From a virus, in IMG/VR virus record IMGVR_UViG_3300005613_000025, positions 27,723 to 91,722 of that record: a DNA stretch of 64,000 nucleotides. One strand, written 5' to 3'. The translations under genes were made by a program, and so were the position numbers. Positions 2,111 to 64,000 of the stretch are shown here, in pieces; position 1 is the first letter of the stretch, and every line of letters starts with the position of its first letter. A model generated the notes under the pieces. It saw nothing but the letters and a program-made list of their open reading frames with translations, was not told the origin of the DNA and searched no databases.

Positions 2111-4104
2111 AGTTATTCAGATTCAATAATTTTAAGAGTGAAAAATTGATAAATGAGAATGTTGCTCAGGCAAAGAAATTGGCCAAAGATACATATCAAC
2201 TTAACAAGGCTATTGTAAGTTTATCAGATGGTAAGTATAAGACCGATAAAGAAGGTCTTGTGATACTCGATACTGATGGATATCCTGTCGAGCCAAAGGA
2301 TATGGACCAAGAGATAGTTCAAAAAGCGAAAGATTCTGTTTCAGAGATAGAGGTCACTGAGGAAGAACTAAAAGCAGCTGAGAGGTCATCTGCCATGGGT
2401 GTCATTCGTGATATAGTTGGTAAAAAACAAGGATACACATATATGTTCCTTTATTTCAAGTTGGTTGAACAGGTTCCTGATGATATGCTCAAAACAATAA
2501 TGTCAAGGTTGAAACAGAATGGTGATCTTTTGAATCGACTGAGAAGGAATATTTCAAATTACATTGATCCTGAGGTGAAAAACAATTCTGAGCAATTGGT
2601 TGATGATCTTGATGATATTGAAAGATATAGAAAGGCAAAGAAGTTCATCAATGAGTTCACATCAGTGCTCAAAGAAGATTACGCACAAGCGCCACCATAT
2701 TTGAAGGATAAACTTGTTGATGTTGCATCAGCATTTGATGAACTTGGAAAAGATGATTCTGGTAAAATAGATAAGGTAGCGCAAAAAGCATCACAGAAAA
2801 TATTCTTCGATAAGATAAAGCGATATAACACAGTGAGAGAGATGTTGGTTGCTGCTGAGGCTCATCTAAAAGCTGAGGCAAATTCAGGATACACTAAATA
2901 TCTGAAATCAATAAAAGAAGTGAATCGTAAATTCGGAAAATTCGGTGCGGATGCTTTATTTGTTGAAAATGGAATTCTTGTGATGGAGCTCAAATCCTAC
3001 CAGGCAACCAAGAAACTGTGTGGTAACACTGCTTGGTGTATTAAGGATCTATACTATTGGAACAATTATGTTGGTGGAGATACTGTTTATAACAGACAAT
3101 ATGTTATTGTGAATTTCAATTTACCCACATCTGATAGGAAGAGTATGATAGGTGTCACAATAGGACCTAATCAGTCAATATATGCTGCACACTATAAGAA
3201 TGACAATGAGGCCAAACCGTATCTGAAACAAGATCTCAAAGAATTCGAAGATGAGTATGGTCTGCCAGAAGGATCATTGTGGTATTACTTACAACCAATG
3301 GATGAAAACGATATCGAAATGAAAAAGAGAAGGATCAGTGCAAATAGAAATGTCGTGAAAAAAGGAATATCGCTTGACCAATTGAAACAATATGTTGTTG
3401 AAGATGGTGCTGATGTGAATGCTGAAAACGGAGCTCCACTGGACAATGCAGTTGAGGAAGATGATTATGACAAAGTGGAATTTTTGTTGAACAGTGAGGC
3501 AAGTCCGAATTTGAGGACTGAGTTTTCAGCAACTGTGAACAAAGTGAAATCGTTCAAAATATTGAAACTTATGTTGAACAATGGTGCAGAGTTGACGAAA
3601 CACGCATTCAGGCCGATGATGGATGACCGTGATGCTATCAAGTTCTGTCTTGAGAATGGAATGGATCCTGACCTTGGTAAAGGACTTCCTATCCGACAGG
3701 CCATCAAGCGAGGTGATTTGGATCTCATCAAGGTGTTCATTGAGAATGGTGCTACTTGGGGTATGGATGACGGAAGAGCTCAGCGAACAGCATTCGAAAA
3801 AGACCAGATCGGAGTTGCAGAATATCTTGTCGAGAACGGATTCAATAAGCGATTTGATATTGTGATGGATTGGATCGGCATGATAAAATCAATGCACTCT
3901 CCTGACAAAAGATACGAACTTCTTAGTATCTGTCAGGACTGGATAGACCGTAAAAGAGTTGAAATGCAACAAAGTGGATACCGTGACAAGGATTCTGATG
4001 GAAAAACCATTGTCATTGACTATGATCGACTTGTTGAAAAGTATGGAAATTACATGAATTATGTCATAAGTAATGATCCATCTATGTCGAAATTTAAAAA
4101 ATGA
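2107..4104 (+). CDS. Ankyrin-repeat-containing protein
   Basis: C-terminal GADVNAENGAPLDNAV and GLPIRQAIKRGDLDLIKVFIENGA repeats. Confidence 0.75.
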   Translation: MKLFRFNNFKSEKLINENVAQAKKLAKDTYQLNKAIVSLSDGKYKTDKEGLVILDTDGYPVEPKDMDQEIVQKAKDSVSEIEVTEEELKAAERSSAMGVIRDIVGKKQGYTYMFLYFKLVEQVPDDMLKTIMSRLKQNGDLLNRLRRNISNYIDPEVKNNSEQLVDDLDDIERYRKAKKFINEFTSVLKEDYAQAPPYLKDKLVDVASAFDELGKDDSGKIDKVAQKASQKIFFDKIKRYNTVREMLVAAEAHLKAEANSGYTKYLKSIKEVNRKFGKFGADALFVENGILVMELKSYQATKKLCGNTAWCIKDLYYWNNYVGGDTVYNRQYVIVNFNLPTSDRKSMIGVTIGPNQSIYAAHYKNDNEAKPYLKQDLKEFEDEYGLPEGSLWYYLQPMDENDIEMKKRRISANRNVVKKGISLDQLKQYVVEDGADVNAENGAPLDNAVEEDDYDKVEFLLNSEASPNLRTEFSATVNKVKSFKILKLMLNNGAELTKHAFRPMMDDRDAIKFCLENGMDPDLGKGLPIRQAIKRGDLDLIKVFIENGATWGMDDGRAQRTAFEKDQIGVAEYLVENGFNKRFDIVMDWIGMIKSMHSPDKRYELLSICQDWIDRKRVEMQQSGYRDKDSDGKTIVIDYDRLVEKYGNYMNYVISNDPSMSKFKK

Positions 4105-57434: not shown

Positions 57435-58298
57435 CATTTCAACATCTTTTCCGAAAACGACCACATCAACCTTATTTTCAATCTTCATCAAAGGTGGTAG
57501 ATCAACTGAATCAACAACCCATCTTTCGATCATCAGATCGGGATCCTTTCTTGCGATGTGTTTCTTTGGCAATTTTTCCAACTCATCAGTAGTGAATTTT
57601 CTCAGAATTCGTTTTCTTTGAACATATGTGCCTCTTTTGAAAAATGCGGGATAATCATTCCAATTCACACCCTTTTCAAACAACATTTCCTGTTTTTCAC
57701 TACCATTCTTCTTGTCGAGTTGTTTGTGTGAATAAAATGAAGATGCTGCCATTGTGATCGAGTTCTTAGTAGCATCTTTTTCTCTCCACAAAAATGTGTT
57801 AACAGCTTCATCCAAAGTTGGAACATTGAAAACCCTGCAATCAAATCTTGGCCATTTGTCAGACTTCTCAGGTAGATATTCTACCAACTTCTTATTGAAG
57901 AAAACTGAAGCCATTGCAGAAAGATCAGAAACCATCTTGAAATATCTACCATCAAAGTAAATAGATGATTTTGGATCATCAACATACCACATAAGAGTGA
58001 TCTCATCACTTTGTGTGTAACCACAATTTGCGTTTGTTTCTTTCACAAGGTACTTTGTGAGTTCGATCATCAACATGGACAATCTTTCATCATAAGGTCT
58101 TTTCAATCCTTTTGTGAATTTTGAGAATCCTTTACCATCTAATCTGGCAATTACTGGAATTCGTGGAAGTAATTTGATTCCACAAGTTTGGTTCTCGTAA
58201 AACTTCATACGGTCCCCGAAGAGGTCTTTTTCTTTTTTCATATCTTTTTTCTTTTTTTTCTCAAATCTCTTTGAAATTTTTTCACCACCTTTTGACAA
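57417..58298 (-). CDS. tRNA(His) guanylyltransferase Thg1-like protein
   Basis: RMKFYE, RLDGKGFSKFT, YTQSDEI, FDCR, WREKDATKNS, KRG. Confidence 0.93.
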   Translation of the reverse strand: MSKGGEKISKRFEKKKKKDMKKEKDLFGDRMKFYENQTCGIKLLPRIPVIARLDGKGFSKFTKGLKRPYDERLSMLMIELTKYLVKETNANCGYTQSDEITLMWYVDDPKSSIYFDGRYFKMVSDLSAMASVFFNKKLVEYLPEKSDKWPRFDCRVFNVPTLDEAVNTFLWREKDATKNSITMAASSFYSHKQLDKKNGSEKQEMLFEKGVNWNDYPAFFKRGTYVQRKRILRKFTTDELEKLPKKHIARKDPDLMIERWVVDSVDLPPLMKIENKVDVVVFGKDVEMKKDLV

Positions 58299-58446
58299 AG
58301 AAAAATGATATGTTTATTAAATTATTTTATCGTTACAAATATAAGAAGTTTTTTTGAATTATGAAAATTATTGATAAATTCTTTCCTCTATCATTTTCAA
58401 AAACTTTGAATCTTGATTAATGCTCATTGAATTTAAGTAACATTGA

Positions 58447-58812
58447 CTATATATTAAATTTAATTCTATATTTCCATATAAGATTATTGAACTCTGTTTC
58501 AATCGATTCTGGTAAGACAATACCATATTCTTTGAATGTTTCATATATCTCATATTTTGTGAATGTTCCTTCCCCGATTCCTTGACACCACATATCACAC
58601 CAAAGACCCCATCCTTTTTTACCCATCATGACACCATAAAGTAGATTAGGATGACAAGTTTTAGGAATTCCAGTTTTCTTGAAAAGTCCATTTTCATATT
58701 CTTTGAAAGCAACTTTACCATCTGATGAGTTTGGATCATACTCTATCTTTATTTCAGAACCACAAAATGTGATAAGTCCTGATCGATAAAGCTTCAGATA
58801 AAATGAAAACAT
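58447..58812 (-). CDS. Hypothetical protein
   Basis: ORF downstream of the tRNA cluster; start uncertain. Confidence 0.5.
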   Translation of the reverse strand: MFSFYLKLYRSGLITFCGSEIKIEYDPNSSDGKVAFKEYENGLFKKTGIPKTCHPNLLYGVMMGKKGWGLWCDMWCQGIGEGTFTKYEIYETFKEYGIVLPESIETEFNNLIWKYRIKFNI

Positions 58813-58941
58813 CTTATTGAATTTTTCCTTGTGATTACTTCTTTTGCGTTGTTTTCTTGATCCAACACGCTTTTTTGTTTGTTCTATTCTTTTTAGCTTA
58901 TCGCCCCCAAGTCTTCCATGATTTCTTTGATTTTACTTTTG

Positions 58942-59017
58942 TGGAGGTTATGGAATTCGAATCCATCTGATTTCCGCTTTGCAAAAGCGGTGACCACTCC
59001 AAGCAGTCCCAACCCCC
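58942..59017 (-). tRNA. tRNA-Ala(UGC)
   Basis: Acceptor GGGGGTT/AACCTCC with G3:U70; anticodon arm CCGCT-TTTGCAA-AGCGG; TTCGAAT T-loop. Confidence 0.92.
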
Positions 59018-59022
59018 TTATT

Positions 59023-59097
59023 TGGAGCAAAATGTGGGATTCGAACCCCGTCCCCGCATTGGAAGTGCGGTGCTTTGCCAGTTAAGCTACATCTTGC
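59023..59097 (-). tRNA. tRNA-Gly(UCC), encoded CCA
   Basis: CCGCA-CTTCCAA-TGCGG; U73 discriminator; 8-9 bp acceptor with a short T-stem. Confidence 0.9.
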
Positions 59098-59107
59098 TTA
59101 TTATCAG

Positions 59108-59188
59108 TAGGCGAGGTGGGATTTGAACCCACGTTTCCAACGTACCACTACGAATATCCAAGGTATAAGCTTGGCTCGGTACTCGCCC
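59108..59188 (-). tRNA. Non-canonical D-armless tRNA-Ile(UAU)-like RNA
   Basis: GGGCGAG/CTCGCCT acceptor, CCAAG-CTTATAC-CTTGG arm, GTGGG-TTCAAAT-CCCAC T-arm; only 7 nt where the D-arm should be. Confidence 0.7.
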
Positions 59189-59190
59189 AT

Positions 59191-59224
59191 AAAAAAACCC
59201 AGTCAAACTAAGTCTGACTGGGTT
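59191..59224 (-). terminator. Intrinsic terminator/attenuator immediately upstream of the Ile-Gly-Ala tRNAs
   Basis: AACCCAGTCAGAC-TTA-GTTTGACTGGGTT plus T-run on the minus strand. Confidence 0.85.
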
Positions 59225-59251
59225 ACATTAATTCTTTAACTTTGAATTACT

Positions 59252-59323
59252 TTACATAACACAGCCATTGACTGACGCTCCCGCGCCGCCTCCGATTATC
59301 GCTATGTTAGTTATTGTTTTCAT
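59252..59323 (-). CDS. Leader peptide MKTITNIAIIGGGAGASVNGCVM (Ile/Gly/Ala-sensing)
   Basis: Read manually; 3 ATA, 2 GGA and 3 GCG codons; lies between promoter motifs and the terminator. Confidence 0.8.
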   Translation of the reverse strand: MKTITNIAIIGGGAGASVNGCVM

Positions 59324-59398
59324 TGTTAATTATATTATCTATATATTAAAAAGTTTTTCTCTCTTTTTTCTTTCTTTTACAAAAGTAAGGATTATTTT

Positions 59399-59653
59399 TT
59401 AAACTGCCAATTTTAGTTTTGTGATCAATTCATTTTTCATTTTTTCAATATCACTTTCATTCTCAATTTCTACATATGAACATCGTCTTGATACTTTAAA
59501 GGCTGATACTTTTACTTTATCGTCTTCCAAAGAAACATAAACTGAGTTTCCTTTTTTATTTTGAAATCCAATGTAAACTGGATTTAAACCAGGTGTGTTT
59601 TGAAATCCAAGATTAATAACTTCGAGTACTGTAAGTGCAAATAGATTTTTCAT
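59399..59653 (-). CDS. Hypothetical protein
   Basis: ORF behind TATATTTG at 59670-59677. Confidence 0.6.
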   Translation of the reverse strand: MKNLFALTVLEVINLGFQNTPGLNPVYIGFQNKKGNSVYVSLEDDKVKVSAFKVSRRCSYVEIENESDIEKMKNELITKLKLAV

Positions 59654-59784
59654 GTTTGTTTTATTTCAACAAATATAAGGATAACTTTTCAATTAACCAA
59701 TTATTTCCGAGGAACCATCTATTCTGATAAACAAGGTCGTTTATTTCTATTGTAACTATTTACATTTCTTTAATTGTTTTTGTT

Positions 59785-60096
59785 TTATGGTCTTCCGCTA
59801 TGATTTGTGTGAAAATCGTTCTTTTCATATTTGAATTCTAGCCAACTTCCTTCTCTTTGATCATGTTTCATTTCAACAGAAGTCCACCCAGCTTGTAGAT
59901 AACTATCTCTGATGAAATTAAAGTGAGAGCCATTCATACCACTTAAACCACTCAAACCACTCAAAGAAATAACACAATGAATTCCATTAGATCTGTATAT
60001 TCCTTTTTTGGTTCTGATTATCCTATCAATAACCTCTTCATATTTCTTAGCCTCTTCTCTAAGTTCTTCATTTAATTCTTCGGGTCTTACTGCCAT
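59785..60096 (-). CDS. Hypothetical protein
   Basis: ORF behind TATATTTG at 60112-60119. Confidence 0.65.
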   Translation of the reverse strand: MAVRPEELNEELREEAKKYEEVIDRIIRTKKGIYRSNGIHCVISLSGLSGLSGMNGSHFNFIRDSYLQAGWTSVEMKHDQREGSWLEFKYEKNDFHTNHSGRP

Positions 60097-60122
60097 TTTC
60101 TCTAATTTTTACAAATATAATC

Positions 60123-60326
60123 TTATTTAATTATTAACCAAAAAATAAAAGTTAAAATAGTATAGGATATGAATCCAGTTATCACTTTTGATATCCTACT
60201 GTCATTTTTGGAAGTGTTTATCCTTTCACCAAATGGCGTAAATATTTTATCATTATCTAATCCAAATGATAGAAAATATGATAACACCAAACCAACAATT
60301 GTCCATATAATAAATCCAATTAACAT
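60123..60326 (-). CDS. Small two-TM membrane protein
   Basis: Two hydrophobic helices. Confidence 0.6.
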   Translation of the reverse strand: MLIGFIIWTIVGLVLSYFLSFGLDNDKIFTPFGERINTSKNDSRISKVITGFISYTILTFIFWLIIK

Positions 60327-60338
60327 TTTTCTAAATTT

Positions 60339-61076
60339 TTAACATTGATAACTTTTTCTTAATTCATTTGAAACAATCTCAAAATATCTTGATCTCAATA
60401 ATTTCAAATAAGTTTCATTATCCATTCCATAGTTTCCAATAGCCCACATGTCATTATATTCAATAACAACATTTTCACCACTTTCTAAAATACCTACATC
60501 AATTGTATATGCTGTTGGAAACTTATCTTCATTCTTATAAACAACCTCTAAAAGTTCGATTTCGTCCGGAAAAGTAAAAATATTACCGGAATAGTTTCGT
60601 ATGTCAATTACTTTATCTCGATAAATATAACACCTCCATTCAGATTCAATAGGTGAATAAAATGGTTTATATGCCATAACCTTTGTATCATCAGGTATAT
60701 TGGAAATCGAAGTATAAATAGATTCATCAATCACAAACCCTGTGAATAATTTGATATCAAATGGTTTGATAAATAGTTTTTCACCTGATTTGGATCTATC
60801 TTTGGCTTGTTTTAGAGTTATGGTTTCAAATTTTCTGTTTGAATTTTCCGGCAACCGAACATCACTCAATCCAATTCTTGAAAAGACCATGTTCATGAAC
60901 TCAACCGAACCAACAAATAGATTATTTCTTATTAGATTGTCAAATCTACCACTTTCAACTTCTTCAAATGTTACGAATTTATAACTTTGAGCAGTATCTA
61001 TTGCTCCATACATTGCACAAGCAACATCAAAATGATGTGGTAGTTTCTTATCTGAATCTGATTGTAAGTATATCAT
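60339..61076 (-). CDS. ATP-grasp domain protein (R2K/DUF4343-like)
   Basis: FIKP..KLFTG, EWRCYI, YTIDVG..VIEYND..GNYG. Confidence 0.85.
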   Translation of the reverse strand: MIYLQSDSDKKLPHHFDVACAMYGAIDTAQSYKFVTFEEVESGRFDNLIRNNLFVGSVEFMNMVFSRIGLSDVRLPENSNRKFETITLKQAKDRSKSGEKLFIKPFDIKLFTGFVIDESIYTSISNIPDDTKVMAYKPFYSPIESEWRCYIYRDKVIDIRNYSGNIFTFPDEIELLEVVYKNEDKFPTAYTIDVGILESGENVVIEYNDMWAIGNYGMDNETYLKLLRSRYFEIVSNELRKSYQC

Positions 61077-61288
61077 TATTGAACTCTATATCTTGTGCTA
61101 GGGTAAACAGGTCTTATGTAAAAAGATATATTGCCGAACTTTTCTCTATACTTTTTCTTTACCTCTTCTATGAAGTCAGAACTATTACTACCAAATGGTC
61201 TTGGTTCTGACCAGAACTCCCAATCAAGTCCTAAAAATCTAACACCAATTATAATGTGGGTGAAACTTTGTTTCCAAATACTTTCCAT
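61076..61288 (-). CDS. Hypothetical protein
   Basis: Operon-packed ORF. Confidence 0.5.
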   Translation of the reverse strand: MESIWKQSFTHIIIGVRFLGLDWEFWSEPRPFGSNSSDFIEEVKKKYREKFGNISFYIRPVYPSTRYRVQ

Positions 61289-61296
61289 TTTTTTTT

Positions 61297-61587
61297 TCAG
61301 TTTAAAATCTTATTTAATTTATTTGATCTATCATATTTCGGATGAATCTGATTCAGATGTTTTTCCATTGCCACAAAGTCAATATCTCCAGTGATGAAAT
61401 ATTCTTTATGAATGTCAATTGCAATTTTCAAAACTCCAATTTTGAAAAGAGTATCTTTATCAGGATAAGTTCCTGGATATTCTTCCTCTTCTTTTACCTG
61501 TCCATAAAGGTCAGATATAAGCAATTTATTTGAATTTCCATACAAATTCATAAGTATATCCCGTGCTCCTTTTAACTTCTTTTTCAT
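61297..61587 (-). CDS. Hypothetical protein
   Basis: C-terminal RSNKLNKILN. Confidence 0.6.
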   Translation of the reverse strand: MKKKLKGARDILMNLYGNSNKLLISDLYGQVKEEEEYPGTYPDKDTLFKIGVLKIAIDIHKEYFITGDIDFVAMEKHLNQIHPKYDRSNKLNKILN

Positions 61588-61829
61588 TTTAATATACTTT
61601 TAAGTTTCAGCTCTCTTAATTTATCTTTATCAATCGTAATATCGTCCTCATCAATAAATTCACCACAAAATATACCTGTATGATATTCAACAATAAGGTA
61701 TTTACCCATATCTTTTACATGATGTATCAAAGCTTTTTCTCCAAACTTTTCACGAATATATGGACCTAAGATAGGATCCAAAGATTTCCTGAATTCAGAT
61801 TCTTTCTTTATTGATTTTATAAAATCCAT
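61584..61829 (-). CDS. Hypothetical protein
   Basis: C-terminal RELKLKSILK. Confidence 0.6.
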   Translation of the reverse strand: MDFIKSIKKESEFRKSLDPILGPYIREKFGEKALIHHVKDMGKYLIVEYHTGIFCGEFIDEDDITIDKDKLRELKLKSILK

Positions 61830-61832
61830 TTT

Positions 61833-62087
61833 TTAATATTTAAAATATTGAAATAAATCAACAGCCTCATTCTCGGTATATTCAGTGTTGAATAAAATAT
61901 GATCGATGAATTTATTGTCTGTTTCTTTGGCGAAATATGTAGGATATTTATCTTCTAACTGTGTGTAAAAATACATTGACTCTCTTAGAGAGATTTTATT
62001 GCTGAACAGTTTGTCTAAAATATCAACAATTTCTTTGTCAGCCATAACTGAACCAGTCTCCCAAAACTCTTCTTTGTAATTTATCAT
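61833..62087 (-). CDS. Hypothetical protein
   Basis: ORF behind TATCTTTG. Confidence 0.55.
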   Translation of the reverse strand: MINYKEEFWETGSVMADKEIVDILDKLFSNKISLRESMYFYTQLEDKYPTYFAKETDNKFIDHILFNTEYTENEAVDLFQYFKY

Positions 62088-62160
62088 CTTGACAAAGATA
62101 AGGAAAAATTATTAAATATTAGTTTTTTAGTATATATAAACTTTACAAAATGACTTTTTG

Positions 62161-62236
62161 TACTCGGTATGGGTGACGATCCCATCTTTTTCCCGTGAAA
62201 GGGGAATGTCCTCAAACCAACATAGACGAACCGAGC
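62161..62236 (-). tRNA. tRNA-Glu(UUC), atypical T-loop
   Basis: TTCCC-CTTTCAC-GGGAA; T-arm ATGGG-ATCGTCA-CCCAT. Confidence 0.85.
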
Positions 62237-62244
62237 ATATTAGG

Positions 62245-62326
62245 TTGGTAGGGAGGGATTCGAACCCCCGAACTCAGAGAGAGATGTTTTACAGACATCC
62301 TGCTTTAGCCACTTGCATACCTACCA
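62245..62326 (-). tRNA. tRNA-Tyr(GUA)
   Basis: GATGT-CTGTAAA-ACATC, variable arm, TTCGAAT T-loop. Confidence 0.9.
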
Positions 62327-62334
62327 ATATTTTG

Positions 62335-62408
62335 TAGTCCGTACGGGATTCGAACCCGTGATCTTTTGGTTGAAAACCAAACGTGTTAGGCCACTACACT
62401 AACGGACC
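62335..62408 (-). tRNA. tRNA-Glu(UUC)
   Basis: GGTCCGT/ACGGACT acceptor; TTTGG-TTTTCAA-CCAAA. Confidence 0.88.
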
Positions 62409-62416
62409 ATTTTCAG

Positions 62417-62510
62417 TGGGAAACGAAGGAATTGAACCTCTAAACTCCATACCAGTCACTATTTTGTTAACGGAGAAGGGTTTTACAGACCCTTTGTGAC
62501 AACGCTTCCC
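62417..62510 (-). tRNA. Non-canonical D-armless tRNA-Tyr(GUA)-like RNA
   Basis: GGGAAGCG/CGTTTCCC acceptor, AAGGGT-CTGTAAA-ACCCTT arm, GAGG-TTCAATT-CCTT T-arm, ~35-nt variable region. Confidence 0.7.
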
Positions 62511-62517
62511 ATATTTT

Positions 62518-62718
62518 TCAAATTTCAATCCAACGAATCAAAAGTTTTGCATCCATTTCTGGTAGAAAATCTGCTTCACCCATATCATCTGTTGGTATTA
62601 CAAAATTGACATCACCTAAGCTTGTCTCAGTTTTGTAATAAGCAGAACCCATTCGGATCATTTGAAAATTTGCGATTGGTTTCTCTTTATAAAGTACTTT
62701 TTTTATTTCATTTTTCAT
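62518..62718 (-). CDS. Hypothetical protein inside the attenuated tRNA operon
   Basis: 66-aa ORF between the terminator and the tRNAs. Confidence 0.7.
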   Translation of the reverse strand: MKNEIKKVLYKEKPIANFQMIRMGSAYYKTETSLGDVNFVIPTDDMGEADFLPEMDAKLLIRWIEI

Positions 62719-62744
62719 TTTATTTTTATTAATTTTTTAACAAC

Positions 62745-62777
62745 AAAAAAACCCATCAACTTTTTAGTTGATGGGTT
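62745..62777 (-). terminator. Intrinsic terminator/attenuator upstream of the Tyr-Glu tRNA operon
   Basis: AACCCATCAACT-AAAA-AGTTGATGGGTT plus T-run on the minus strand. Confidence 0.88.
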
Positions 62778-62801
62778 CTCAGTTACTTTATGTTTTTATA
62801 C

Positions 62802-62900
62802 TTAACTAAAGCACATAGTCTCATCAACTACAAGGTTTCCCTCATATTCATACTCATAAGCCTCATAAGACAATACTGATATGTTGTTGATGTTAGACAT
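62802..62900 (-). CDS. Leader peptide MSNINNISVLSYEAYEYEYEGNLVVDETMCFS (Tyr/Glu-sensing)
   Basis: Read manually; TAT GAG GCT TAT GAG TAT GAA TAT GAG run followed by a segment complementary to the terminator. Confidence 0.85.
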   Translation of the reverse strand: MSNINNISVLSYEAYEYEYEGNLVVDETMCFS

Positions 62901-62936
62901 TTTACTTTTTATTTTCTTTTGTTTTTAATTCTTTTA

Positions 62937-62968
62937 CAAATATAAGGTAGATTTTTTAATCTACCAAA
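62937..62968 (-). promoter_or_regulatory. Bacteroidota-type housekeeping promoter (-33 TTTG, 20-nt spacer, -7 TATATTTG)
   Basis: TTTG-GTAGATTAAAAAATCTACCT-TATATTTG upstream of the leader peptide. Confidence 0.75.
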
Positions 62969-62985
62969 TTTATTTTATTTTTTTG

Positions 62986-63061
62986 TAGCGGGGACAGGAT
63001 TCGAACCTGTGACCTCCGGGTTATGAGCCCGGCTAGCTGACCTGACTGCTAACACCCCGCA
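62986..63061 (-). tRNA. Initiator tRNA-fMet(CAU)
   Basis: CCGGG-CTCATAA-CCCGG with three G-C pairs; unpaired position 1:72. Confidence 0.9.
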
Positions 63062-63106
63062 ATGTTTATTTTATATTCTCTATATATTAAAAAGTTTTCT
63101 TCCCTT

Positions 63107-63292
63107 TTAAAAAAGTGAAGAAAAAAATCCGACACTGAATGCAACACCTAAAATTGATAGTGTTTGAACAATAATGAAAATTACAAATATCAAATTAGGA
63201 ACTTCCATCATTCTTTTTTTCTCAACCAATTTATCAAAATTATTGATACCGATGATCGGCATCAGAATATTCCAATGTTTAAAATTTTTCAT
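63107..63292 (-). CDS. Small membrane protein
   Basis: C-terminal TM helix; TATATTTG upstream. Confidence 0.55.
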   Translation of the reverse strand: MKNFKHWNILMPIIGINNFDKLVEKKRMMEVPNLIFVIFIIVQTLSILGVAFSVGFFSSLF

Positions 63293-63315
63293 AACACAAA
63301 TATAGGAAAAATCAT

Positions 63316-64000
63316 TTAAAAATCAAATTCATCATAGGATTCATCATCGACATCCTGTTTGAATGCTCCAACGGTGTAACTATCTATTTCTGTTTCCTGT
63401 GGTGCGTTCTGTACAGAAGAGCTATCACCGGTCCATTGGTTGATCCATGTTATAGGGTTTTTAACTTTATCGAATATTGGTTTCAGGCCGATTATTTTCA
63501 TTCTGTTGTTTGTAAGCCATTGCATATATTGTGTGAGTATCTCAGCGTTCAATCCGATCATTGATCCATCTTTGAAAAGGTAGTTTGCCCATTCCATTTC
63601 TTCTTTTGCAGCATCTTCATACATTTTAATAACAATATCTTCACAATCTTCTGCAATTTTTTGAAATCCTTCCTCCCATTCATTTTTAAGTGTTTTCAAA
63701 AGGAATGAAGTGAATCCCATATGAAGGTTCTCATCTCGATTGATCAATGAAATGATCTTGGCGTTCCCTTCCATTTTCTTGTTCTGTGCAAAACAATATG
63801 AACAAGCAAAACTTACATAGAATCTTATACCTTCGAGAATATTGATCGAGACCAATGTCAGATAAAGTTTCTTTTTCTTATCGTATTCAGTTTCATTGGG
63901 TATATCATTTATAAGTTGATCATAGTAATATGTCACGGACGATGCTCTTTTGAGTATCTCCTCATCTTTCATTATTGAATCAAATACTTCAGATGGATCT
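63316..64000 (-). CDS. nrdB: Ribonucleotide reductase class Ia beta subunit (5' part outside the window)
   Basis: LEGIRFYVSF, RDENLH, APQETEIDSY. Confidence 0.96.
   Translation of the reverse strand, partial: DPSEVFDSIMKDEEILKRASSVTYYYDQLINDIPNETEYDKKKKLYLTLVSINILEGIRFYVSFACSYCFAQNKKMEGNAKIISLINRDENLHMGFTSFLLKTLKNEWEEGFQKIAEDCEDIVIKMYEDAAKEEMEWANYLFKDGSMIGLNAEILTQYMQWLTNNRMKIIGLKPIFDKVKNPITWINQWTGDSSSVQNAPQETEIDSYTVGAFKQDVDDESYDEFDF

Follow-up and report, generated by a model that had tools for sequence, protein, structure and literature searches.

The enterobacterial multivalent attenuators (thrL: Thr, Ile; ilvL of ilvGMEDA: Ile, Val, Leu; trpL, hisL) combine a translated short leader carrying runs of regulatory codons with an intrinsic terminator, and leader-peptide attenuation also extends to the translation apparatus in the pheM leader of Escherichia coli pheST (phenylalanine--tRNA ligase), which is chromosomal and devoted to a single amino acid. 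For the role and control of the transfer RNA (tRNA) genes carried by large phages, the current ideas are compensation for codon usage and replacement of tRNAs destroyed by host defences. Here, we describe positions 62160-62968 (minus strand) of a 64,000-nucleotide stretch (the window, i.e. the whole of that stretch) of the IMG/VR virus record IMGVR_UViG_3300005613_000025, where a leader rich in Tyr and Glu codons and a strong terminator precede Tyr and Glu tRNA genes. This region is likely to be a ribosome-mediated leader-peptide transcription attenuator of the tRNA operon. The window belongs to a 91.7-kb record that is 16% complete by CheckV, and therefore to a very large phage. Inducible control of a tRNA array has been described in the trn operon of Anabaena sp. 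PCC 7120, a long array that is silent and is induced when translation is impaired (PMC8421152); its control lies with a repressor of transcription that acts at the promoter (PMC8421152; TrcR, PMC10272220), and no attenuator, leader peptide or terminator features in the account of the array (PMC8421152).

The elements of the Tyr/Glu locus and their order (Table 1) are those of a preliminary description made from the letters, and its listed features are real apart from the first of the four tRNA genes. The host-type promoter it had placed at 62937-62968 coincides exactly with a Bacteroidota-type motif that occurs at 7 sites in the window versus 2.5 expected (0 of 100 shuffles get to 7) and that also precedes the orthologous leader in the phage genome LR745206.1. 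A scan for E. coli-type promoters gave nothing above chance and was dropped in favour of this motif. The 32-codon open reading frame (ORF) with its YEAYEYEYE run is present; Tyr and Glu account for 9 of its 31 residues versus 3.8 expected (binomial P = 0.01), and every Tyr or Glu codon of the run is readable by the GUA and UUC anticodons encoded downstream. The terminator, likewise confirmed, is a stem of 15 pairs with a 4-nucleotide (nt) loop and a U tract, with a stability of about -17 to -19 kcal/mol. We number the pairing segments 1 (early in the leader), 2 (the antiterminator strand, just past the codon run), 3 and 4 (the 5' and 3' arms of the terminator). As described previously, TAGTTGATG (62830-62822) in region 2 is perfectly complementary to CATCAACTA (62774-62766) in the terminator 5' arm. 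The 2:3 duplex has an energy of -11.9 kcal/mol (p = 0.02-0.06 versus shuffles), and the 1:2 duplex one of -11.2 kcal/mol (p = 0.04). An alternative +1 frame in the leader (12 codons, Met-rich, ending in region 2) was rejected, the longest frame fitting both the N-terminal pattern of the family and the tRNA set.

By strict criteria, the only two strong terminators on the minus strand in 64 kb are those of this locus and of a second leader module in the window (59387-58941). Both are preceded by short frames only, and therefore are not ordinary gene-end terminators. The 66-amino-acid gene of the preliminary description is present after the terminator; it has no Pfam family and only a weak match to phrog_20427 (function unassigned there), and a 54% identical homologue (L035:6001-6213) lies inside a tRNA operon of another phage that would also be gated by an attenuator. 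As for the tRNA genes, which had been given as exactly Tyr, Glu, Tyr and Glu, the last three (Glu, Tyr, Glu) were called as such, whereas the first Tyr gene is only tRNA-like.

Comparison with related genomes provides the strongest evidence for the attenuator. The set consists of 21 modules in five huge-phage genomes: two in the window, eight in LR745206.1, five in LR756501.1 (735 kb), two in IMGVR_UViG_3300033066_001081 and four in IMGVR_UViG_3300020045_008999 (597 kb, 98% complete). The uncultured phage LR745206.1 (634 kb, 63 tRNA genes) is the sole GenBank relative at the Tyr/Glu locus, and a nucleotide search of GenBank phages gave no match beyond the tRNA-Met gene except this genome. Twenty modules would gate tRNAs and one an asparagine--tRNA ligase gene. 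Of the ATG frames that end before the terminator, the longest was taken as the leader throughout, and each leader was compared with every tRNA set. In the first nine modules only 4 of 362,880 possible pairings equal the observed leader/tRNA concordance score; with 16 modules the concordance reaches z = 9.0 (0 of 1,000,000 permutations equal it), and with all 20 tRNA modules of the five genomes z = 9.9 (0 of 300,000). Nearly every downstream isotype (67 of 68 in the 20 modules) occurs in its own leader. Thus, the correlation between leaders and tRNAs in related genomes, whose absence would have refuted the reading according to the preliminary description, proved to be strong. Across modules, cognate codons number 194 in the ORF frame versus 84 and 57 in the other two frames, and 173 of the 194 are readable by an anticodon encoded downstream. 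Such frame specificity speaks for translation rather than for a motif at the RNA level. In each of the 21 modules there is an ATG frame, and it ends 17-47 nt before the terminator (22 nt at the Tyr/Glu locus).

The same predicted device, with a differing codon 'barcode', is found at the head of each main tRNA block of the related huge phages and of one aminoacyl-tRNA synthetase gene. The leaders of LR745206.1 are listed with their barcodes in Table 1; the Asn-rich one, which has a terminator of its own, is followed by the asparagine--tRNA ligase gene (asnS model, 2e-92), the whole spanning L004:4376-5500. Of the two leaders in IMGVR_UViG_3300033066_001081, one is a Leu/Val/Cys leader and the other a Phe/Glu/Asp/Ala leader that precedes Asp, Phe, Glu and Ala tRNAs.

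In 19 of the 21 modules, the segment 3' of most cognate codons pairs with the terminator 5' arm and loop better than do dinucleotide shuffles (combined Fisher 6e-16, mean -12.8 kcal/mol). Control terminators that are not followed by tRNAs show no such pairing (0 of 25 at p < 0.05, median p 0.51, mean -7.0 kcal/mol), and the two groups differ strongly (Mann-Whitney 5e-9). In the alignment with the LR745206.1 ortholog, the promoter, the untranslated region (UTR) and the codon run are conserved, and the indels (6, 3 and 3 nt) preserve the frame. Between the two phages, region 2 has changed jointly with the two arms of the terminator (TAGTTGATG/CATCAACTA in the window, GTCAGAC/GTCTGAC in LR745206.1), and the pairing is kept.

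The effect of a ribosome on this pairing was modelled as the preliminary description had suggested, by folding the nascent RNA up to the terminator loop with the ribosome footprint masked. In the fold of the Tyr/Glu leader without a ribosome, region 1 holds region 2 through 11 pairs, with the terminator arm free. With the ribosomal A site placed on the Tyr/Glu codons 12-20, the 2:3 antiterminator (10 pairs) appears in 7 of 8 positions, and with the ribosome at the stop codon the 1:2 pairing forms again, so that the folds switch between 1:2 and 2:3 as predicted. When stalling on cognate codons was modelled in 17 modules, the terminator 5' arm was sequestered at most positions.

Table 1. Features of the Tyr/Glu locus, of the second module in the window and of the leader modules of LR745206.1.
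Feature	Position	Strand	Details
Bacteroidota-type promoter	62968-62937	-	TTTG-N20-TATATTTG; -33 TTTG at 62968-62965, 20-nt spacer with hairpin, -7 TATATTTG at 62944-62937; pattern search
Leader ORF, 32 codons, ATG to TAA	62900-62802	-	Longest ATG frame ending before terminator
Regulatory codon run YEAYEYEYE, codons 12-20	62867-62841	-	4 TAT (Tyr), 3 GAG and 1 GAA (Glu), 1 GCT
Region 1, ORF nt 8-20	62893-62881	-	Predicted to pair with region 2 absent a stalled ribosome; minimum free energy fold, masked folds
Region 2 (antiterminator strand), ORF nt 70-80	62831-62821	-	Contains TAGTTGATG; begins 10 nt past the last Tyr/Glu codon of the run
Intrinsic terminator	62780-62740	-	5' arm 62780-62766 (region 3, contains CATCAACTA), loop 62765-62762, 3' arm 62761-62747 (region 4), U tract
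66-amino-acid ORF	62718-62518	-	Between terminator and tRNA genes
Atypical tRNA-like gene, GUA (Tyr) anticodon loop	62510-62418	-	8-bp acceptor stem, no D arm, long variable arm (fold)
tRNA-Glu(UUC)	62408-62334	-	ARAGORN and Rfam, 71.5 bits
tRNA-Tyr(GUA)	62326-62243	-	ARAGORN and Rfam, 51.2 bits
tRNA-Glu(UUC)	62236-62160	-	ARAGORN only
tRNA-Met	63060-62987	-	ARAGORN and Rfam; upstream of the Tyr/Glu leader promoter
Second attenuator-type module	59387-58941	-	-7 motif 59387-59380; phage-type motif 59354-59338; leader, terminator, tRNA genes
Second leader ORF, 23 codons, run IAIIGGGAGA	59323-59252	-	Rich in Ile, Gly, Ala
Second module terminator	about 59224-59196	-	Heads second tRNA cluster
tRNA-like Ile(UAU), tRNA-Gly(UCC), tRNA-Ala(UGC)	within 59387-58941	-	Genes behind second terminator; ARAGORN, Rfam
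Leader rich in His, Lys, Phe, Trp	LR745206.1 L002:1881-1976		tRNA His, Phe, Trp, Lys behind terminator
Leader rich in Ser, Arg	LR745206.1 L002:3131-3205		tRNA Arg, Ser behind terminator
Leader rich in Tyr, Glu; ortholog of the 62900-62802 leader	LR745206.1 L003:3030-3116		tRNA-like GUA gene (not called by ARAGORN), tRNA Glu, Tyr
Leader rich in Ile, Gly, Ala	LR745206.1 L003:4082-4165		tRNA Ile, Gly, Met(CAU), Gly
Leader rich in Asn, Leu, Thr, Val, Ile, Met	LR745206.1 L004:1701-1817		19-tRNA block, those types and Arg
Leader rich in Pro, Gln, Asp	LR745206.1 L005:1704-1799		tRNA Pro, Asp
Leader rich in Gln	LR745206.1 L005:2639-2689		Three tRNA-Gln
Leader rich in Asn	LR745206.1 L004:4376-4426		Asparagine--tRNA ligase gene

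The attenuation reading of the preliminary description is thus borne out by leader composition that tracks the downstream tRNA set in 20 modules and by the pairing evidence, and a mechanism may be proposed for the Tyr/Glu locus. Transcription would start at the host-type promoter and the 32-codon leader would be translated by a ribosome. When Tyr and Glu are decoded fast, the ribosome would pass region 2, which would re-pair with region 1 behind it, and the terminator hairpin 3:4 would form and end transcription at about 62745. When charged tRNA-Tyr or tRNA-Glu is scarce, the ribosome would stall in codons 12-20, with region 1 occluded or parted from region 2. Region 2, which lies 10 nt past the run, would then be free to pair with the terminator 5' arm as that arm emerges from the polymerase. 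In this state no terminator would form, and the gated operon (66-amino-acid ORF, tRNA-like GUA gene, tRNA-Glu, tRNA-Tyr and tRNA-Glu) would be transcribed, the net effect being negative feedback on decoding capacity for Tyr and Glu. Translation of the leader, stalling of the ribosome, the direction of the switch and the physiological condition that triggers it are what we infer from the sequences. Candidate natural triggers would be a codon-demand mismatch, cleavage of tRNAs by host defences or starvation; anticodon-nuclease attack as the trigger is pure speculation.

Several points weigh against this mechanism. Modules of the same genome are paralogs, and there are orthologs among those of different genomes, so that they are not fully independent, and the operon boundaries were chosen by ourselves. 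Taken alone, the Tyr/Glu locus is weak (enrichment P = 0.01, pairing p = 0.02-0.06), and its run is a near-tandem TATGAR repeat of a kind that replication slippage could create. Some tRNA genes in these genomes are leaderless, namely the tRNA-Met gene of the window, the amber suppressors of LR756501.1 and a Met/Tyr pair in the 597-kb contig. The first product regulated would be a protein without assigned function and the first 'tRNA' is atypical, and extra tRNA is of no help when the amino acid, and not the tRNA, is limiting. In terms of energy, the terminator is far more stable than the antiterminator (about -19 versus -12 kcal/mol) and always wins at equilibrium, which requires a kinetic switch such as that of trp. 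The stop codon of the Tyr/Glu leader lies 17 nt past the end of region 2, and a ribosome waiting there leaves region 2 uncovered; the off state therefore relies on renewed 1:2 pairing or on timing. Across modules the 1:2 pairing does not generalise (Fisher 0.13), and a general anti-antiterminator of this kind in the family is unsupported; the Tyr/Glu locus is one of three modules with the complete 1:2 / 2:3 / 3:4 layout. Finally, in 14 of the 17 modules the default structure of the ribosome-free fold is the antiterminator, and most members would therefore need active translation to terminate. In these, the translating ribosome itself would keep region 2 occupied.

These last two points would also suit an attenuator that reports general translation failure, with any slowing or absence of ribosomes freeing region 2 and with the codon content of the leader secondary, and the induction of the cyanobacterial tRNA array by translational stress (PMC8421152) is in agreement with such a response. 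We nevertheless consider this unlikely. It gives no account of leaders that list the amino acids of their own block, nor of the frame specificity, and in the Tyr/Glu leader the 1:2 pairing is predicted to keep the switch off without ribosomes. A switch of opposite polarity is very unlikely. Here, efficient translation of the leader via the phage tRNAs would bring the ribosome to melt the terminator, in positive feedback or in simple coupling of the pyrBI type. Ribosomes are known to suppress terminators in E. coli, and the position of the short ORF, which ends 17-47 nt before each terminator stem, invites the comparison. However, the stop codon is 22 nt from the stem at the Tyr/Glu locus and at least 17 nt from it in every module, beyond the reach of a terminating ribosome, and the conserved, co-varying 2:3 pairing just past the codon run would have no role.

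It is highly improbable that there is no switch at all, i.e. that an independent small gene and a terminator stand upstream of the tRNAs by chance and that the Tyr/Glu run is a slippage repeat. The coincidence would need to be repeated in 20 modules with different amino-acid sets, which the statistics make unlikely, and the antiterminator pairing is absent from the control terminators. Moreover, the -7 promoter motif TAnnTTTG, as read from the sequence, does not occur from 62745 to 62160, i.e. after the terminator through the tRNA genes, and no promoter motif thus separates the two. What speaks for chance is the modest statistics of the single locus, the repeat-like run and the Rfam match to His_leader (RF00514) over 62893-62743, which at 25.3 bits (E = 0.61) falls short of the threshold of 49 bits and is a resemblance in layout only.

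Direct reading of the codon run by tRNA anticodons on naked RNA, in the fashion of a T-box and without a ribosome, would equally predict that the run codons match the downstream anticodons, yet it is barely credible here. Neither a T-box leader nor another riboswitch family is matched in Rfam at E up to 1 in 58000-64000, and no conserved acceptor-binding element is seen. Each module offers an open frame bounded by an ATG and a stop, the codon enrichment is specific to the frame, and the indels between orthologs are multiples of three. That the short ORFs are functional micro-proteins (regulators or substrates) whose composition is selected for the peptide is scarcely tenable either, for although leaders across phages have a loose N-terminal pattern in common (M, K/T/N, T/N, I/M/L, N/T, N, I), their central segment is wholly different between modules and follows the tRNA set, and RNA pairing places constraints on their C-terminal parts.

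If ribosome-mediated attenuation is extended to whole genomes, it may be imagined that huge Bacteroidota phages possess a decoding homeostat resolved by amino acid. All main tRNA blocks and one or more aminoacyl-tRNA synthetase genes would be gated by multivalent leaders of their own, and the system would sense tRNA-depleting immunity such as anticodon nucleases and replace only the isoacceptors under attack. We regard this extension as possible but doubtful.

Turning to the other features of the leaders, a conserved AACATA (Asn-Ile) is present before the codon run in leaders of several phages (in many modules at leader nt 16-21, for example window 62885-62880) and might be a pause or ribosome-loading signal. 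Of the four leaders in the 597-kb contig, three use TAG as their stop, and another stop follows four codons later. The two CUA-anticodon tRNA genes (amber suppressors) of LR756501.1 (L044:1086-1239) directly follow a hairpin-bearing promoter without a leader ORF, and no leader with TAG codons was found before them. No leader was found for the second tRNA cluster of a 28.6-kb contig (L038, reverse strand), whose operon may start past the contig end; in the same contig protein genes, one of which resembles the homing-endonuclease type, lie between the tRNA genes at about 900-1540 and 2620-3030.

The atypical RNA genes of the window share the absence of a D arm and an enlarged variable region (62510-62418 with a GUA loop and 59188-59108 with a UAU loop, both on the minus strand). 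The former was missed by ARAGORN, and its Rfam match to tRNA-Sec is sub-threshold at 25.6 bits. The atypical gene is the first RNA gene after the terminator and the 66-amino-acid ORF at the Tyr/Glu locus and the very first gene at the second module, and the LR745206.1 ortholog likewise starts with an odd GUA gene missed by ARAGORN.

Two further elements were observed around the promoters. The motif ACTTTTTAATATATAGA occurs at 9 sites in the window at up to 3 mismatches versus 1.1 expected, including 63095-63079 and 59354-59338 (both minus strand), and most leader ATGs in four phages have a related AT-rich TATATA element 8-25 nt upstream, in many cases preceded by a AAAAGGGA-like box. Together these probably constitute a phage-specific promoter. 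The tRNA-Met gene carries the ACTTTTTAATATATAGA motif yet has no leader. A hairpin palindrome is located between the -33 and -7 elements in the window (62965-62946, minus strand) and also in the promoters of loci L002, L004, L005 and L006; its symmetry is kept and its sequence varies (GGTAGAT/ATCTACC, TAGATA/TATCTA, GGTGA/TCACC). It could be the terminator of the upstream unit or a candidate operator.

Searches for relatives through the neighbouring genes gave loci of a different kind. The ribonucleotide reductase beta gene (63972-63316, minus strand) adjoins the tRNA region, and its IMG/VR relatives (L010-L033; 24 loci, 65-95% identity) lie in unrelated surroundings with synteny lost and with no tRNA nearby, which suggests gene exchange. 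A 245-amino-acid neighbour led to seven loci with no tRNAs within 5 kb, and their contigs led in turn to the 597-kb genome. An exact-pattern search with a 21-mer of promoter and UTR gave 12 matches, all of them unrelated Bacteroidota-type promoters.

If the proposed mechanism holds true, the phage would gauge the decoding speed of defined codons and top up only the missing tRNAs, and a textbook mechanism of amino-acid biosynthesis and of one synthetase operon would be extended to tRNA genes. The leader barcodes could serve to predict how operons are organised and to identify odd tRNA-like genes, and the design would offer compact, programmable, codon-specific sensors for synthetic biology. No published account of tRNA genes under attenuator control was found in full-text literature searches, and leaders, attenuation and terminators are not mentioned in the megaphage paper (PMC6784885).

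Among the described systems, the Anabaena trn array resembles the phage modules as an inducible accessory tRNA set, but it is controlled by a repressor at the promoter and its response is not amino-acid-specific. The T-box leaders of Firmicutes have in common with the modules the antitermination of transcription according to the state of a given tRNA, with translation-related genes as targets; they differ in binding uncharged tRNA directly, without a ribosome, through a conserved fold, whereas the phage modules have frames of the translated type. In the probable host phylum, the attenuator RNA family Bacteroid-trp (RF01692) was detected in Bacteroides thetaiotaomicron, used as control genome, and the likely host phylum therefore uses leader-type attenuators. 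This family has no match in the 91.7-kb phage record and, unlike the phage modules, precedes tryptophan biosynthesis genes. A direct counterpart of pheM is seen in LR745206.1, where the asparagine--tRNA ligase gene follows the Asn-rich leader; pheM itself controls a synthetase and not tRNA genes. The likeness to thrL, ilvL, trpL and hisL, beyond the basic plan, includes an antiterminator strand just 3' of the codons, several amino acids per leader and, at the Tyr/Glu locus, the 1:2 pairing. The antiterminator and terminator energies of the phage module are of the same order as the textbook trp values. The phage modules differ from the enterobacterial leaders in that they have no sequence homology to them, mostly have no 1:2 helix, are phage-borne, and would gate tRNA genes in place of biosynthetic enzymes, such that the decoder itself is fed back on. 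The proposed mechanism is a new use of a known type of switch, with attenuation applied to the tRNA genes themselves.

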